Assembly: GCA_963792965.1 (NCBI GenBank)
Contig: CAWBYW010000016.1
Location: 115,925 to 179,924 of the forward strand
Length of the DNA: 64,000 nucleotides
Direction: 5' to 3'
Source: an uncultured delta proteobacterium
GTDB taxonomy: Bacteria > Desulfobacterota > Zymogenia > Zymogenales > Zymogenaceae
Under the pieces are notes generated by a model that saw only the letters and a list, made by a program, of their open reading frames with translations, had not been told where the DNA came from and ran no database searches. The stretch's first letter is position 1, and each line of letters opens with the position of its first letter. Both the position numbers and the translations under genes were made by a program. Shown here one piece after another: positions 787-16,731 of this stretch.

Positions 787-2193
787 TCACGTGCGGGCCG
801 TGCGAATCCTCCCGAGGACTTCCGTAAACTCCCGGATGTCCTTCATCTCATCGATTCTCATGGCGGATTCATAGATCTCCCGCCATTGGCCGTCGGAAAG
901 GAAGTTTCTCGTGCAGACGAGGAGCTTTTCCCGGATATCGATCGGGTTCTTGTAGGAGCCCTTCATCGCCTCGGTGAACTTCGAAAACGTCGCACCGTTC
1001 TTCATCACGAAGGTGACCTCGCCCGAATTGATTCCCTCCTGCATCTCCCTGACGTCAAGAGACGGATCGGCGGTGAACTCTATTTTATCGAAGAAGGCGT
1101 GGAGTCTCTTGTCCGCCATCCTCTTCTTCGTAAACTGGGCCTCCGTCAGCTCACCGTCGAGGATCGCCGCCGCCAGCGGATAGACCGAATTGAAGAAGAG
1201 CGGCACCGCGGTCAGGTAATCGGTCTTGACGATCTCGCCTATCAGATCGACCAGCTCGTCGGTAGGCTTGTTGAGGAGCAGCGTCACCGTGGGGCACCGC
1301 ACCTGGACCCGGTCGATCGCGTCGCGGTCGATCCCGTGCTCTCGGATCAGGTCAAGGGCGCTGTCCACCAGGGCGTCCAGCCACCCGCAGCAGGGATAGA
1401 GTTTGGGTGAGTGCGTGTCCGTGCGCCAGTCGGTGCCGAGGTCCTTGACCATCTCCGTCAGGTCGTACCGGTCAAAAATCGCGTTGGAGAAGCCGTCGGG
1501 GTGCTCGATGATCTTCCGAAAGCCGTGGAGCCCGCTCTTGGCCAGCGACGCACCGAGGATCCCCGCGTAGACCGGGGCCCCGGTGATGAACCCCTTGCTC
1601 GGGGAAAACCATCCGGCAAACGACTGGGTCATCGGCGGAAAACACGAGATCCCCACCGCGTCCATTATCTGTTCCTTCGTGAGACGGAAGAGTTTCCCGG
1701 CCACGAAGGCGGCATCGATCTGGTGGTTCGGGCACGAGTTGGTGAAAAGACGGCTCTTGATGTAGGCGTGGCCCGTCCTTCCGGAGATCTCGTTGCCGAC
1801 GATCAGCGCCGTCAACAGCTCACGGCCGGATGCCCCGACCGCCTCCGCCACCGCCAGGGCGCAGGGGACGGTGGACGCGCCGGAGTGCTGGGACCTGAGG
1901 TAATCCTCCCACTCGAGCGTCTGGGCGGCCACCGCGTTGGCCATCCCGGCGTGGCGCATGCTGCTCTTGGTGCCACGGCCGATGAGGGTCGATTCTTCGC
2001 GGTCTCCGAACGACTCGACGCCGGCAAAGAGCGGCGCGAGCTCATCCGTGCGGCTCCCGGCAAGGATCGCCGCGACGATGCCGATCACCTGCTCCTTGGC
2101 GCAGCCGACGGTCTTTTTCGGAATATCGGTAAACGCGAGGCCGGACGCCCATTCGCTCAGGATCTCCGTTACCGCAATGCCTTTCTGTGTCAT
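787..2193 (-). CDS. MmgE/PrpD family protein (2-methylcitrate dehydratase-like)
   Basis: Intact 468-aa ORF whose length and composition match MmgE/PrpD family proteins. Substrate cannot be assigned. Confidence 0.65.
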   Translation of the reverse strand: MTQKGIAVTEILSEWASGLAFTDIPKKTVGCAKEQVIGIVAAILAGSRTDELAPLFAGVESFGDREESTLIGRGTKSSMRHAGMANAVAAQTLEWEDYLRSQHSGASTVPCALAVAEAVGASGRELLTALIVGNEISGRTGHAYIKSRLFTNSCPNHQIDAAFVAGKLFRLTKEQIMDAVGISCFPPMTQSFAGWFSPSKGFITGAPVYAGILGASLAKSGLHGFRKIIEHPDGFSNAIFDRYDLTEMVKDLGTDWRTDTHSPKLYPCCGWLDALVDSALDLIREHGIDRDAIDRVQVRCPTVTLLLNKPTDELVDLIGEIVKTDYLTAVPLFFNSVYPLAAAILDGELTEAQFTKKRMADKRLHAFFDKIEFTADPSLDVREMQEGINSGEVTFVMKNGATFSKFTEAMKGSYKNPIDIREKLLVCTRNFLSDGQWREIYESAMRIDEMKDIREFTEVLGRIRTART

Positions 2194-2207
2194 GACAAAT
2201 CCTCCGA

Positions 2208-2606
2208 TTATCCGAGCGGAAGGAGCACCATCGCCTGCATGACCGACGAGAAGCGCTCGACCAGCGCCATATCCTTCAGGGCGACGACGTCACGGACCGG
2301 GTCAAGCTCAAAGCGGAAGACCGTGGCGTAGGTCTTCTTCCCGGTCAGGATTTTCTCCCACTGGTCGCGCGTGGTGACAAGGCGCGCGTGGCAAAACGGG
2401 TCGTCCCCATCTGTGACGGTCATCCCCTCGGGGGTGATCGTCACGGTATACGCCCGCCCCCCGGCCTCGGCGAGCACGACCTTCTTGTGGAGGAGGTCCT
2501 CCACGATGCCCATCTGCAGCATGACGGGGATGAGCATATTGAAACGGTCTTTTACCCTGCCGAGCAATTCCAAGAGTCGTTCATTGTTTTTCACCGGGTT
2601 CTTCAT
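2208..2606 (-). CDS. SCP2 sterol-carrier-like domain protein
   Basis: 132-aa ORF directly downstream of the PrpD-like gene. Weak resemblance to SCP2 lipid-carrier domains. Confidence 0.4.
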   Translation of the reverse strand: MKNPVKNNERLLELLGRVKDRFNMLIPVMLQMGIVEDLLHKKVVLAEAGGRAYTVTITPEGMTVTDGDDPFCHARLVTTRDQWEKILTGKKTYATVFRFELDPVRDVVALKDMALVERFSSVMQAMVLLPLG

Positions 2607-2666
2607 GGCCCATTCTCGCTAAAGGGATGAGATAAACGGCAACCCGCGCCCTTCCCGGGCCGAGGC

Positions 2667-3985
2667 CTATTTCAATCGTTTGACGATCTCAAAGACTTTT
2701 GCCAACGCCTCCCCCTCGTCGAACGTGAGGATCTTCCCCCAGTGATGGACGACCCGCCCCCCACGATCGTGGTCTTGACATCGAGCCCCCGCGCGGAATA
2801 GACGAGGTGGGACTCGTACGAGAAGAGCGGCGCGGCATGGGGACGCGACAGGTCGACGACGATCAGGTCCGCGGCCATGCCCGGCGCAAGGCTCCCCACC
2901 TCCGTTTCCAGCCCGAGGGCCTCGGCGCCAAGGAAGAGCGAGAGCGAGAGGACGGTTTTGGCGTCCATCTGGGCGGGGTCCTTCGAGGCAAGCTTATGCC
3001 CCTTGGCGCAGAAGTCCATCTCGTAGAAGAGGTCCTGGCGGTTGTTGGAGGCCGGCCCGTCGGTGCCGAGCCCCACAGGGATGCCGGCCGCCAACATCGC
3101 CGGCACCGGGGCAAGGCCGTTGCCGAGCTTGGCGTTGCTGCCCGGGCAGTGTACCACGGACGCGCCGTACTCGGCCAGGATATCGATCTCCTCGGGCTCG
3201 ACGTAGACGGCATGCACCGCGATAAAGGTATCGGAAAGAATACCCTCCCGCGCGAGGAGGCGCACGGGTGTCGCCCCGTATTTCTGCGTGACCGTCTTCA
3301 CCTCCGCCTCCGACTCGGCAAGGTGGGTGAAGAGCGGCACTCTGTACTCGTCGCACAGCTCCTTTACCGTGCGGTATGTCCGGGGGGAGGCGGTGTAGGG
3401 GGCGTGAACGAAGAGGGCCGGGGTCACGAGGCCGCCGCCCTTCTTTTTCGTTTCTTCGAGGAATTGCCTGAGGACCGATAGGCGCCCGCCGTCGTCCTTC
3501 CACTGGGGCTGCGGCCCATCGATGACTCCCTGGGCCGAGATCGCCCTTATCCCCGCGGCGCCGAAGGCCTCGGCGGCAGAGGAGGCAAAGAAATAGGCGT
3601 CGGCGCACGTGGTGATGCCCGAGCGCAGCATCTCGGCGGCCGACACGAGGCTCCCCCAGTAGACCATGTCGCGTCCCATGAGTTTTTCTTCGGCGGGTAT
3701 GATCCGATTAAATAGCCAGGTGTCAAACGGGAGGTCATCGGCATAGCCGCGCAGGACCGACATGGCGGCGTGGGTGTGGCCGTTGATGAGCCCCGGCATG
3801 ACGAGGTCGCCCCCGGCATCTAAGGTGCGCTCGGCCTCAAATCCGTGGCCGATCTCGAATTCGTCGCCGACCGCGACAATCACCCCGTCTTTTATGCAGA
3901 CGATGCCGCTCGGAAAGCGGCTCCCCCGCTCATCGAAGGTGAGGACCGGACCACCCTTGACGATGAGGTCGACCTTCTCGGTCAT
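2667..3985 (-). CDS. MtaD-like amidohydrolase (5'-methylthioadenosine/S-adenosylhomocysteine deaminase family), frameshifted near 2770
   Basis: N-terminal metal-binding motif LINGHTHAAMS and amidohydrolase-wide similarity. After ...VKTTIVG the frame turns to junk. The alternate frame gives RVVHHWGKILTFDEGEALAKVFEIVKRLK followed by TAG at 2667-2669. A 1-bp indel in a C-run near 2769-2779 explains the break. Confidence 0.75.
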
Positions 3986-4380
3986 ACGACCACCGACTCG
4001 TCATCGGCGCGCCAGGCCGGGTCAACGATGCAATAGAAGACGAGGTCGGAATTGCCCGTGTTCTCGGTCCACTGCAGCGCCCCGGGGGGGACGTAGACGA
4101 GGCTGCCCGCCGAGACCTCGGCCGCCTCATCATTCACGTGCATGATGCCCCGTCCCTCGGTGACGATGAAGACCTCGGAGGACGATTTCAGCCGGTGGGG
4201 CAGGTTCCGGGAGCCCTTCGGCATGCGCGCGACGGCGATCGAGTAATGCGTCGCGACGGGGTCCTTCATGGGCGACATGAGCTCCTTGATCGGCGTCGTG
4301 TCGGCGGCCGTGATGCCCGGCGTCTTATGCGGTTCAACGATTTTCATTTGTTCTACCCGATTAGAGGATTTTGGTGACAC
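3982..4380 (-). CDS. cupin domain protein
   Basis: 132 aa with cupin_2-like beta-barrel motifs (EVFIVTEGRG...LVYVPPGA). Overlaps the downstream deaminase gene by 4 bp (ATGA). Confidence 0.6.
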   Translation of the reverse strand: MSPKSSNRVEQMKIVEPHKTPGITAADTTPIKELMSPMKDPVATHYSIAVARMPKGSRNLPHRLKSSSEVFIVTEGRGIMHVNDEAAEVSAGSLVYVPPGALQWTENTGNSDLVFYCIVDPAWRADDESVVV

Positions 4381-4426
4381 TCTACTTAATTAAGACTCTA
4401 TAAATTGACGGGGTAGATCTCAATTA

Positions 4427-4453
4427 AAATTAAGCATGGTGTCCCCCTAATTC
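4427..4453. repeat. 27-bp palindromic repeat unit, copy A (aaattaagcatggtgtccccctaattc)
   Basis: Near-identical to copy C at 4945-4971 (23 of 27 positions). The ends of the unit are self-complementary (gaattaag / cttaattc). Confidence 0.6.
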
Positions 4454-4860
4454 TACTTCCTTCTCCCGCACTCAGAACAAACACCTTTATGAACACAAAT
4501 AGTCCCACCACAATCGGGACATGTCCATCTTGATTTTTCGTTTAGTAGAAATTTTGTAATACCCAATTTTTCAATATTCCCGAGATTTTCAATCATGCTC
4601 ATAGTATACTTTGTTCTATATCTTTTGTCCAAATGCTTCAATGTATCGCAGGGAAAATCATTGCATTGAAAACAAAACGTTGCCTTTCCATTCTTGAGGA
4701 CTTCGCAGATTTTGATTTTGCATGTGGTGCGGGTAATCGGCTTGCCAACATCCGAGCCTCTGCATCCACGACATTTGTTACTTTCTCTCAGATATGCTAA
4801 GCAAACACCGCAATTCATCCCACAGGGGGCGATGAGCAAAGCTGCGCCTAATGATGCCAT
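4453..4860 (-). CDS. DUF3795-like cysteine-rich protein
   Basis: 135 aa with N-terminal CGMNCGVCLAY...KCRGCRG and further CxxC motifs typical of DUF3795. Lies in an AT-rich (about 40% GC) island in a 62% GC background. Confidence 0.55.
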   Translation of the reverse strand: MASLGAALLIAPCGMNCGVCLAYLRESNKCRGCRGSDVGKPITRTTCKIKICEVLKNGKATFCFQCNDFPCDTLKHLDKRYRTKYTMSMIENLGNIEKLGITKFLLNEKSRWTCPDCGGTICVHKGVCSECGRRK

Positions 4861-4887
4861 GCTATTACTATATATTATTTCCCAAAA

Positions 4888-4971
4888 GAATTAAGGGGAC
4901 ACAATACTTAATTCACTTTTCTTTGCTTATCCTGAAGGCCCGTTGAATTAAGTATTGTGTCCCCTTAATTC
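4888..4971. repeat. pair of perfect inverted 27-bp repeats (copy B 4888-4914, copy C 4945-4971) forming a long hairpin
   Basis: gaattaaggggacacaatacttaattc and gaattaagtattgtgtccccttaattc are exact reverse complements, separated by 30 bp. Confidence 0.7.
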
Positions 4972-4973
4972 GC

Positions 4974-7162
4974 TTACCCCACCGACTTCCTCACCCTCCC
5001 CGACAGCTCCCGCGCCTTAGCCATGATGTCGGCCGCATCCGCCTTCGTTAGCTTGCCGTCGTGCACCAGCACGTCCCCGTTGACCAGCACGTCCCGCACG
5101 TCGGTGGATTTTGCGGCGTAGACGAGGTGCGAATAGGGGTTGTAGACAGGCGTCAGGTGGGGCTTATTGAAATCGACGATGATGAGGTCGGCCTTCTTGC
5201 CGACGGCGAGCGTCCCCACCAGCTCACCGAGCCCGAGGGCTCGCGCGCCGTTTTTTGTGGCGGTCTGGAGGACGGTCTTTGCCTCCATGTGCGTCGGGTC
5301 CGCATCGTAGACCTTGTGGAGCTTTGCCAGCGTATCCATCTCCCCGAAGAGGTCAAGGTCGTTGTTGCTGGCGCATCCGTCCGTGCCCAGCCCCACGACG
5401 ATCCCCCGCCCAAGGTACTTGTGCACCGGCGCCCATCCCGAGGCGAGCTTCATGTTGCTCTCGGGGTTGGTGACGACGGTAACATTCCTTTCACGCATGA
5501 TCTCCATCTCGGCATCATCCACCCAGACGGCGTGGAGCGCCGTGAATCTCTCGTTGAGGACGCCCAGGTCGTCCAGATACTCAAACGAGCTCTTGCCGTG
5601 CTTCTTCTTCACGTCCTCGATGTTTGCACGGGACTCCGCCACGTGGACGATGCAGCGCACCCCAAACCCGTCCGAAATCTCCTTTGCCCGCACGAAGAGC
5701 TCCGGCGAGCAGGTGTCCAGCGCGTGGGGCTGGATGGAGGGAACGATAAGGGGGTCGCTCTGCCACTTCTTGATGAAGTTTTCCGTATACTCGAATCCCT
5801 TCTCGATGGGCCCGTAGTTCGGGGAGGGAAAGTCATAGAGCACCTCGCCGAGCACCCCCCGCATCCCCATCTCTTTGGCGGCTCTCGCCGCCGAGTCCTC
5901 GAAGAGGTACATGTCACAAAAGGTCGTCACCCCCCCGAGCAGCATCTCCGCGCAGGCGAGCTTCGTCCCCCAGTAGACGAAGTCGTCGTCGAGGTTGGCC
6001 TTCTCGGCCGGAAAGATATAGTCGCATAGCCACCGCTCCAGCGGCAGGTCGTCGGCGATCCCCCGAAAGAGGCTCATGGCCGCATGCGTGTGCCCGTTGA
6101 CCAACCCCGGCATCACGACGCATCCCGTCGCGTCAATCTCGGTTCTTGCCGCCCAGCGACGGGCGGCATCGCTCCGTTTCCCCACGAAAGCGATCGCGTC
6201 GCCTACGACCACGACCGCGCCGTCTTCAATCGGGACCCCGTCCTCCATCGTCAGGACGATCCCGCCCGAAATAACTACGTCCGCGCCGATTCTCTCCGTC
6301 ATTCCTCTTTTGTTTCTCCTATCCGCCGGATTACCGCGGCGATCAGTCTGATGAGGTCCGGACCGGTCCTCTTCTCCCGTGGCGATGATATCGTCGATCA
6401 GGATGGGAGCCATGGCGTCGGGGAGGTTAACGTTGGCCACGAGCGAAAAGCCCAACACCCGCATCCTCACGTGCGCCGCGGTGATCACCTCCATAACCGT
6501 CGACATGCCCAGGGCGTCGGCACCGAGGCCGCGAAACATCCTGGTCTCGGCCGCCGTCTCGAGGCTCGGGCCCAAGACCCCGATATAGACCCCCCGGTTG
6601 ACGTGGATGCCCAGCCTGAGCGCCTCCTCTTCGGCGATCTCGATGAGCTCCCGATCATAGGCCTTCGTCATGTCGGGAAAGCGGGGGCCCAACGTGTCGA
6701 GATTGGGGCCGACGAGCGGGTTACGGCCCGTGAAGTTGATCTGGTCGTGGATAACCATGATCTCCCCCGGCCGAAAGAGCGGATTGAGGCCGCCGGCCGA
6801 ATTGGTGATGATGAGGGTGTTGATCCCAAGGGCGAAGAGGGCCCGGACGGCAAAGGCGATCTCGGGGGCCGTATACCCCTCGTAGAGGTGGAACCGGCCC
6901 TCCATGGCCGCCGTCTCCACCCCGGCGATCCTCCCGATATGCAAAATCCCCGCATGACCCTCCGCGGTCGAGACGGGGAAGTGGGGGATCTCCCCATACG
7001 GGATCGAAACCTCCGTCTCCATGACCGCGGAAGTACCGGAAAGTCCCGTGCCGAGGATCACGGCCACGCGCGGACGGAGGTTTGTCTTGATGAGGATGTG
7101 ATCGGCCGCCTCGTGGATCTCTTTGATCGCTTTGTCTGCATCGCGGGGGGGCTGGACTGTCA
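4974..7162 (-). CDS. PNP-family nucleoside phosphorylase (MTA/MTI phosphorylase-like) fused in frame to an MtaD-like deaminase
   Basis: Residues about 37-300 carry PNP family-1 motifs (ILGTGLSG, GHAGILHIG, GMSTVMEV). Residues about 325-765 are an amidohydrolase with VNGHTHAAMS. The likely start is the ATG at 7162 (MTVQPP...), preceded by GGAGGGAG. An internal ATG at 6301 is preceded by AGGAG. The linker between the two domains is Arg-rich and low in complexity. Confidence 0.7.
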
Positions 7163-7313
7163 TGGTATGACTCCCTCCACTGAGATAGACCGCTGGACCG
7201 GACGGACACAAACGGTCCGTCTGCGGCGCACGGGTGAGTGGCATACGGTCAGCCGGGCCGCATGAGCACACGGCCCATCGCGTCCGCGCGGCGCACCGTG
7301 CCCGAAAGTATCT

Positions 7314-16589: not shown

Positions 16590-16690
16590 GCGCACGTGCG
16601 CAGACGGATACCGCCGGAAGTCGCCGTCGGCGCTCCGACCGGTCGATACCGGTGCCGAGTCGGGAGTTTTCGAACATCGAAGGTAAAACG

Positions 16691-16731
16691 AGACGGGGTG
16701 GGATATCGATTCTCACCCCGTCTCTTTTTTT
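16691..16731 (+). terminator. Rho-independent terminator after the substrate-binding gene
   Basis: agacggggtg...caccccgtct stem followed by a T8 run. Sits between the binding-protein and permease genes. Confidence 0.8.

Follow-up and report, generated by a model that had tools for sequence, protein, structure and literature searches.

A short AT-rich segment in the genome of an uncultured delta proteobacterium of the family Zymogenaceae (contig CAWBYW010000016.1, positions 115,925 to 179,924; this whole stretch of 64 kb is referred to below as the window) carries a single gene, encoding a cysteine-rich protein of the DUF3795 family, between copies of a 27-bp repeat. The question raised by this locus is whether the repeats came in with the gene, as the ends of a mobile cassette, or were in place before it. 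A previous sequence-only reading took composition and flanking repeats together as signs of a laterally inserted cassette, and named an integron-like cassette with an attC-type site, a miniature inverted-repeat transposable element (MITE), or a REP-like element with cargo as candidates. A different type of locus is offered by the TIRYT genes, which in the passages of Di Nocera et al. (2013, PMC3733652) devoted to them are flanked by long inverted repeats with a common GGGGWSAS motif, some of these repeats forming families arranged as dimers, the "TIRtrons". From the comparison with relatives described here we consider it likely that the repeats are resident doublets of the TIRYT type (IS200-like, Y1/HUH), and that the foreign DUF3795 gene has replaced the transposase at a TIRtron-derived site.

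The DUF3795 locus and the same junction in relatives

Read on the gene strand, the locus runs from the amidohydrolase stop codon (4974) through a perfect doublet, a 27-nt spacer, the DUF3795 gene and a decayed doublet to a cupin gene. Its features are:

4974..7271, minus strand: open reading frame (ORF) of 765 aa with PNP_UDP_1 and amidohydrolase domains (Pfam), conserved left-hand neighbour
4888..4971, minus strand: upstream repeat doublet of 27/28-bp inverted units, with arms 4888-4915 and 4944-4971 and a 28-nt loop, 4916-4943
4861..4887, minus strand: AT-rich spacer of 27 nt, separating the DUF3795 start codon from the doublet, probably imported DNA
4453..4860, minus strand: DUF3795 gene (Pfam PF12675), 135 aa, cysteine-rich, GC 0.41, foreign cargo
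4365..4454, minus strand: downstream decayed doublet, with unit A at 4427-4454, a 36-nt loop at 4392-4427 and unit D at 4365-4391
3982..4347, minus strand: cupin gene (Pfam Cupin_2), 121 aa, conserved right-hand neighbour that defines the orthologous junction

The drop in guanine-plus-cytosine (GC) content that had drawn attention to the locus was confirmed. Positions 4401-4800 have GC fractions of 0.35-0.40 in 200-bp windows, against about 0.60-0.66 on both flanks, and form the lowest of all 400-bp bins of the 64 kb (0.388; the next lowest is 0.477). The trough contains a single plausible ORF, whose assignment to DUF3795 was also borne out (E 6.4e-9, 36.6 bits against a Pfam cut-off of 22.6); the GC of the gene is 0.41 compared with 0.59 for the window. 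Exact-sequence look-ups of the DUF3795 and cupin proteins of the window returned no record.

The two arms upstream of the gene, units B and C, are perfect reverse complements as previously stated (28 nt each, 100% complementary, 28 nt apart). Both correspond exactly to the cross-phylum consensus GAATTAAGTATTGTGTCCCCTTAATTC, and the doublet begins 2 nt past the stop codon of the amidohydrolase ORF. The 27-mer has two matches in the window at no more than 3 mismatches, against none in 100 shuffles, and window-wide the repeat units occur at this locus only. Copy A is genuine, with 4 mismatches to the consensus. On the gene strand units B and C carry GGGGACAC and unit A carries GGGGGACAC, that is, the GGGGWSAS motif. 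The three copies reported earlier are thus real, but their number was one too few: a fourth, heavily degenerate copy, D, pairs with A over 27 nt (74% complementary) across a 36-nt loop, and the DUF3795 gene therefore lies between two inverted doublets. Copy D is intergenic, since the cupin gene most likely starts with the ATG at 4347 and not at 4380 as had been assumed: cupin orthologues are 70-95% identical, and the protein has 121 aa in all 21 close homologues listed. A promoter-like TTGAGA-17-TAGAGT is found at 4423..4395 (minus strand), in the loop of the downstream doublet and upstream of the cupin gene.

Three related lineages, represented by the loci L115, L072 and L209/L210, have a doublet-TIRYT-doublet arrangement between the amidohydrolase and cupin genes. 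L115, from the "delta proteobacterium" metagenome-assembled genome (MAG) MFD05674.bin.2.3, is syntenic with the window at 76-80% DNA identity over window positions 824-6599, except for 4885-4314. L072, from a Ca. Zymogenaceae MAG, is likewise syntenic, and the cupin gene is part of the shared gene order in both. The L209/L210 lineage was found through cupin homologues and has an intact TIRYT of 216 aa. The homology with L115, which amounts to 77% DNA identity in the PNP/amidohydrolase ORF, spans the upstream doublet, ends at window position 4885 and resumes within the cupin gene. The arms of this doublet are identical at the orthologous site of L115 and in L001, a strain-level relative of the window with the same arrangement and 9 differences in 913 bp. 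Moreover, the loop of the upstream doublet is similar, in inverted orientation, to the L072 loop (z 4.6, 0/1000 shuffles) and also similar to the L209 loop (z 3.4) at the same position, which argues that the upstream doublet is resident and not imported. The downstream doublet can be aligned with the downstream doublets of L115 and L072, and the unit-D variant GTGTCACCAAAA is likewise found ahead of the cupin gene in L208, whose contig ends there, and ahead of a TPR gene in L072.

The slot of L115, L072 and L209 starts with a promoter, TTGAC(A/T)-17-TATACT, whose -35 element abuts the unit, followed by the TIRYT gene. TIRYT identity between L115 and L072 (81.5%) is similar to that of the flanking genes (67-81%), which fits vertical inheritance of the transposase at this junction, and not repeated insertion. 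Among the relatives examined, DUF3795 occupies the slot only in the window and in L001. Elsewhere the junction contains one doublet filling a 95-bp gap (L215), 205 bp of remnants with three degenerate units (L211/L212), or a 31-bp scar retaining only ...CCTCTAATTC... (L213/L214). Judged from these sites, the transposase would have been lost repeatedly at the junction, and the segment between the doublets was evidently often lost. At the junction of the relatives, where an empty site was to be looked for, there is no AT-rich gene but a TIRYT gene, a single doublet, remnants or a scar. Neither is the gene an ancient resident beside a repeat unique to this site, as the repeat is found elsewhere and the relatives have no AT-rich gene here.

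Two further observations concern the same junction. The doublet loop is homologous but inverted between lineages (window 4916-4943 versus L072 672-701 and L209 286-315), which is the product expected of recombination between the two arms, and the same flip is found among copies in MAG B21D1T1. L072 also contains, at 1502-2286, an extra gene for a 252-aa TPR protein with a GC of 0.36 (locus 0.56), situated between a degenerate unit (1500-1525) and a unit at 2287-2313, and thus a second, independent case of a low-GC gene among these repeats.

The DUF3795 gene and its junctions

A total of 1757 homologues of the DUF3795 protein were found, with an unusually high similarity across bacterial phyla and archaea (65-82% identity), and PF12675 was present in all 120 homologues listed. 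In the alignment of this subfamily, proteins from very distant bacteria and archaea are 63-81% identical to that of the window. The closest ones (76-82% aa identity) come from low-GC hosts such as Phycisphaerae and Sedimentisphaerales, and most close relatives belong to hosts of 30-46% GC, with a gene GC that matches that of the flanks. The lateral acquisition proposed earlier for the gene is upheld by its low GC, its absence from the junction in all relatives examined, and its homologues in low-GC hosts. DUF3795 seems to be frequently transferred. A separate case is seen in L134 (1290-2285), where a DUF3795 gene (68% identical, GC 0.36) forms a low-GC island beside parA/parB in a host of 60% GC; this island also contains a small membrane protein gene and an IS5-like transposase fragment, and no 27-mer repeats.

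An alignment of 54 sequences has 15 invariant cysteines, among them a CX3CX2C group and, towards the C-terminus, a CxxC...CxxC resembling a zinc ribbon; the protein may therefore bind a metal or an Fe-S cluster. No relative of DUF3795 was found in the PDB at E up to 1, and the AlphaFold2 model (predicted local distance difference test score 60.7, below 50 in the N-terminal half) was too poor for a fold search. A single passing mention of DUF3795 was found in the literature, and no function. Seven of the nine differences between L001 and the window fall in DUF3795 (window 4560-4807), five of them non-synonymous and two synonymous, and the arms of both doublets are unchanged; this is a weak hint of relaxed constraint on the gene, in numbers too small for a claim.

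The 27-nt spacer resembles the DNA upstream of DUF3795 in the close relatives L005 and L128 (z about 4) but has no resemblance to the sequence preceding TIRYT genes (z at most 1.3). It contains no Shine-Dalgarno sequence, no TIRYT promoter of the type seen in the relatives, and no recognisable promoter for DUF3795. On the opposite side, the gene finishes with a stop codon that adjoins unit A or overlaps it. Given this donor-like spacer and the position of the stop codon, the imported segment (about 4455-4887) would extend from one doublet to the other, give or take a few nt. A left junction at the edge of the doublet is more likely because the spacer looks donor-derived, and for the same reason a precise ORF-for-ORF swap by microhomology between TIRYT ATGGCAAGATTA and DUF3795 ATGGCATCATTA was set aside. 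TIRYT and DUF3795 genes both end in ...AAGAAATA(G/A), and an 11-nt identity, AAAAAGAAATA, is found at the gene ends of the L072 TIRYT and the L002 DUF3795. Stop-codon microhomology at the right junction is possible on the basis of these gene ends.

Outside the window and L001 gene and repeat were not found together. Even when 7 mismatches are allowed, no repeat unit lies within 2.5 kb at any of the 80 metagenomic DUF3795 loci, none of these loci has a TIRYT-like gene, an inverted-repeat scan around DUF3795 in L002, L003, L005 and L006 gave no matching repeat, and there is no DUF3795 in the 120 repeat-bearing loci listed. The repeat is thus absent from all 85 other loci encoding a DUF3795 relative, and no mobile repeat-DUF3795 cassette was found elsewhere. 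The notion that the repeats delimit the cassette or arrived with it finds no support in these results, nor in the finding that the same doublets flank a Y1 transposase at this site in relatives.

The repeat family and its associated transposase

When the search pattern AATTAAGNANNGTGTCCCCNTAATT, with 21 fixed bases, was run on a one-genome-per-species collection, at least 120 stretches matched, in MAGs of more than ten phyla, and the recurrent cargo that the repeats flank, about which the sequence-only reading had asked, turned out to be a Y1 transposase. Host groups among the matches listed are Omnitrophota, "Deltaproteobacteria", Alpha- and Gammaproteobacteria, Aminicenantes, Planctomycetia, Bacillota, Nitrospirota, Nitrospinota, Elusimicrobia, Actinomycetes, Calditrichaeota and others. 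The listed stretches contain 47 identical copies of the exact 25-mer of the window B/C arms, across very distant phyla, and 237 units at up to 6 mismatches, with none in shuffled sequence. The same "-+" polarity was observed in 73 of 91 adjacent unit pairs (GGGGACAC arm, loop of 0-61 nt, GTGTCCCC arm), and 72-73 doublets are present among the listed loci. Beyond the unit edges conservation breaks off sharply, and neither flanks nor loops are related from one locus to another. Since the search pattern fixes most positions, 80 units outside it, caught only by a mismatch-tolerant scan, were re-scored separately and proved at least 95% conserved in the core TGTCCC. The self-complementary unit ends GAATTAAG...CTTAATTC noted earlier are present in the window units, but a hairpin within the unit was rejected, as the 80 less biased copies show one-sided changes and no compensatory pattern.

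Whole doublets recur within one MAG with the same loop and in both orientations (e.g. L026/L083 versus L061/L107), and the loops of L060 and L074 match. Within-doublet covariation over all loci reflects mostly genome-specific sub-variants, and the only concordance kept as evidence is that in two MAGs holding two sub-variants the sub-variant is shared by both arms in 11 of 11 doublets. Recurrence, polarity and arm concordance together identify the doublet as a dispersed, hairpin-forming, non-coding element of REPIN architecture. Target-site duplications were at chance level in 72 doublets (k=2, 6 versus 4.5 expected; k=3, 1 versus 1.1; k≥4, none). The repeat had one match among 2.9 million viral contigs; plasmids gave no DNA match to it, and TIRYT homologues there are at most 40% identical. 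From these searches the repeat/TIRYT family looks chromosomal. A second unit sub-family, (G)AATTAGGTACGTGTCCCCGTAATTC, occurs in relatives (L115 2428-2509; L050, L051, L209, L215), where it forms the downstream doublet of the TIRtron and is also dispersed as single copies. The TIRYT reading frame of L115 enters a unit of this sub-family, and its stop codon lies inside the repeat.

Clustering of the ORFs within 1.5 kb of the repeats gave a single recurrent protein family, of 216-223 aa and starting with MARLARVV...PHH..QRGNRRQ. Among the listed repeat-bearing loci it is found, intact or fragmentary, beside the repeats in 11, from Nitrospiria, Gamma- and Alphaproteobacteria, Bacillota (Dethiobacter), "Deltaproteobacteria", Planctomycetota (Jettenia) and Calditrichaeota. 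It matches Pfam Y1_Tnp (PF01797, IS200-like) with E values of 1e-13 to 1e-14. An alignment of eight TIRYTs adjoining repeats has the motifs NH(V/M)H, WQ and Y(I/V)E(L/M)NP, with N59, H60, H62, W99, Q100, Y119, E121, N123 and P124 invariant. In their treatment of the subclass, Quentin et al. (2018, PMC6006769) equate TnpA-Y1 subclass 2.1, also group 1 of Bertels, with the TIRYTs, and give as its traits NHVH, W[EQ], a YIELNP-type motif (Y---NP), about 240 aa and a C-terminal extension. By motifs, length and the GGGGWSAS repeat motif, as distinct from the profiles of those authors, the transposase would fit this subclass as described there. In L115, L072 and L209 TIRYT has doublets on both sides at the orthologous site, and five other phyla likewise have TIRYT flanked by the repeats. 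The earlier statement that the window has no transposase holds for the TIRYT family (tblastn of the 64 kb, best E 1.8), the only family screened for, and the window is therefore a TIRtron derivative and not an intact TIRtron.

The loci of the relatives resemble the TIRtron/TIRYT systems, as portrayed in the relevant parts of Di Nocera et al. (2013, PMC3733652), in having a Y1/HUH gene flanked by long inverted GGGGWSAS repeats (here GGGGACAC), in repeat families that are moderately abundant and often dimers, and in a protein of about 220 aa with NHVH, WQ and YIE(L/M)NP. Unlike in those parts of the description, the transposase of the window is gone and the foreign DUF3795 is in its place, and the 27-mer, which hardly varies over more than ten phyla, functions as a REPIN-like doublet. 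The account of subclass 2.1 in Quentin et al. (2018, PMC6006769) gives, in its relevant part, no REP-like sequences for this subclass, where we find REPIN-like doublets. As in REPIN-RAYT systems and REPtrons (Bertels & Rainey 2011, PMC3116915; Nunvar et al.; Ton-Hoang et al.), the dispersed unit is an inverted hairpin doublet, extragenic and multi-copy, found on either side of an IS200-like transposase gene that is present once and is passed on at a constant chromosomal position, and in some lineages the transposase is lost and the repeats remain. Unlike in those systems, the consensus has no GT[AG]G on either strand (REPs have a 5' GT[AG]G at the foot), the 27-bp unit has a sequence-specific core instead of being a GC-rich imperfect palindrome, the protein falls below the NCBIfam cut-off for RAYTs, and the repeat is common to phyla and not lineage-specific. 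The family is filed with the TIRYT branch, and not with canonical REP/RAYT, because of the missing GT[AG]G foot.

Two of the earlier candidates can be placed against this background. The REP-like element with cargo came closest of the three, but a REPtron-like (TIRtron) locus with its transposase replaced is a better description. The MITE was right in so far as these are dispersed non-coding inverted-repeat elements, but unlike in a DDE-derived MITE the inverted arms are accompanied by flanking direct repeats at chance level only. HUH/Y1 chemistry, hairpin-forming ends and the lack of target-site duplication are shared with IS200/IS605 elements with passenger genes. Such elements can carry non-transposase genes, and no evidence was found that the DUF3795 block moves. 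Unlike in IS200/IS605, there is no tnpB (the window was screened for TIRYT-like proteins only), and the ends are near-identical inverted units and not distinct left- and right-end hairpins.

Origin of the arrangement and rival explanations

We propose that an ancestor of the window lineage, among the relatives of Ca. Zymogenaceae, had a TIRtron between the amidohydrolase and cupin genes, and that a segment of about 0.68 kb with the promoter and the TIRYT gene was lost in the window lineage. A low-GC fragment of about 0.43 kb, comprising DUF3795 and some 25 nt of its own upstream DNA, would now lie between the resident doublets. The repeats would thus be older than the cargo, which was probably acquired horizontally from a low-GC donor. 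Enzymes of the Y1 superfamily cut single-stranded DNA next to hairpins. The swap may have begun with breakage at or beside the two doublets, which can form hairpins, and the cause may have been either the Y1 enzyme or host processing by nucleases that attack long palindromes; foreign DNA would then have been joined in by an illegitimate or microhomology route. The 11-nt gene-end identity could have aided the right junction. At present the doublets would be passive hairpins, or at most RNA or transcription-boundary elements between genes. As the upstream doublet is perfect and the downstream one decayed, the system may or may not still be served by a TIRYT elsewhere.

Several points weigh against this proposal. 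An immediate donor, with a DUF3795 more than 82% identical, was not found, and the junctions are placed only within a few nt, by similarity on short AT-rich sequence. For the putative swap, enzyme-made and illegitimate joining could not be told apart. The cognate transposase could lie elsewhere in the genome, beyond the 64 kb analysed, with the upstream doublet still of perfect consensus. The protein scores 64.5-70.5 bits against NCBIfam REP_Tyr_transpos (NF047646, RAYT), below the cut-off of 80, and its placement in subclass 2.1 follows from motifs and the GGGGWSAS match instead of published profiles. Finally, it is strictly conceivable that a DUF3795 element bounded by repeats inserted independently at a site preferred by such elements.

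Insertion of this kind has a specific form in which repeat-DUF3795-repeat is a non-autonomous transposon, mobilised in trans by TIRYT and inserted beside or instead of the resident element by targeting its own repeats. IS200/IS605-type enzymes insert next to sequences like their own ends, DUF3795 lies between inverted units just as TIRYT does, and a second low-GC gene, that for the TPR protein of L072, is found between units at the same junction. Repeat-bounded segments in L066, L098 and L123 are also 0.12-0.14 below the GC of their loci, a figure that comes without a null distribution. We nevertheless regard such a transposon as unlikely: neither the 80 metagenomic DUF3795 loci nor L002, L003, L005 and L006 have the repeats, the metagenomic loci have no TIRYT-like gene, the 120 listed repeat-bearing loci have no DUF3795, and the upstream doublet is orthologous to that of the relatives by its loop, with the L115 homology running through it. 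Homologous cassette exchange, in which a donor DUF3795 already situated between the same doublets replaced TIRYT by recombination within 27-84 bp of repeat homology, would agree with both junctions lying at unit edges, and portable homology for it exists, as the exact 25-mer is common to very distant phyla. It is very improbable, given that none of the 85 other loci with a DUF3795 relative has the repeats; nor is a vehicle seen for it, the repeat being nearly absent from viral contigs and absent from plasmids. The resident upstream doublet and the transposase at the same site in relatives speak against exchange and transposon alike, and both are retained because the immediate donor has not been sampled.

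The remaining rivals concern the repeats themselves. They might be chiefly regulatory, as an operator, terminator or mRNA-stabilising hairpin selected by the host, with the transposase link secondary. In the window, L072, L209 and L215 no more than 0-2 nt separate the doublet from the stop codon upstream of it, the -35 element of the TIRYT promoter abuts a unit, and as RNA the upstream doublet forms a very stable predicted hairpin followed by UUCUUUU, so that a transcript boundary is plausible from its sequence. A sequence-specific core conserved across phyla with free loops, dispersal of the doublets in many copies and both orientations, and the recurrence of one transposase family beside them make a chiefly regulatory origin scarcely credible. 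An Rfam scan of 3900-5400 at E up to 1 adds only two sub-threshold chance matches, and a secondary regulatory role is possible. The integron-type cassette, with the B/C hairpin as attC site, draws its sole support from a small, promoterless-looking gene beside a hairpin-forming site. We give it next to no chance, for the stem is perfect over 28 bp with no extrahelical bases, a single GTTRRRY (4942) occurs in 650 bp with no paired R''/R' core sites, the unit keeps its sequence from phylum to phylum, which attC sites do not, and the repeats are associated with a Y1/HUH transposase and not with an integrase.

A more far-reaching interpretation would make the doublets a general gene-capture platform: the transposase, or breakage directed by the hairpins, would clear the slot between two doublets and allow single foreign genes to take it over. 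DUF3795 in the window, the TPR gene in L072 and the low-GC repeat-bounded segments elsewhere, which have no null distribution, are hints of this; we think it decidedly unlikely. If true, it would be an HUH-based functional analogue of an integron cassette site, with the near-invariant 27-mer as a portable recombination handle.

REP/RAYT-type systems are usually described as lineage-specific, vertically inherited repeats served by one domesticated transposase. The present element family is already described, though sparsely studied. New with respect to the published descriptions, as far as their sections on these elements go, are the near-invariant 27-mer across phyla, the REPIN-like doublets, and a series of site states that includes a refilled slot. 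The 27-mer is almost unchanged in more than ten phyla while TIRYT proteins are 52-60% identical, and is thereby a clean candidate for a DNA recognition code. One orthologous site offers a natural series (intact, single doublet, remnants, scar, refilled) that shows how such loci decay, and that a transposase slot can come to hold a horizontally acquired gene. Hairpin doublets may be hotspots of gene gain, and for annotation it follows that repeat-flanked AT-rich genes can be mistaken for integron or MITE cassettes. Current views are not overturned by this: the locus is a well-resolved example of fairly ordinary gene turnover at a repeat-flanked hotspot, and not a new system.

Two minor observations concern the rest of the window. 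What had been called a PNP-deaminase gene is one ORF here, but corresponds to two genes with a 4-bp overlap in relatives (e.g. L211 107-970 and 967-2295). The single 765-aa ORF results from a frameshift near 6375 (minus strand, region 6300-6380): the window leaves the ancestral PNP frame after ...LIDDIIAT, the ...LIRLIAAV... of the conserved C-terminus can be read in the +1 frame, and past the break the ORF continues into the amidohydrolase frame. The fusion may be either a genuine frameshift or a sequencing or assembly error. Apart from the doublets, the window has a single short-range inverted repeat of 18 nt or more, at 16685-16729; with arms of 19 nt, a 7-nt loop and a run of T behind it, it has the appearance of an ordinary intrinsic terminator.

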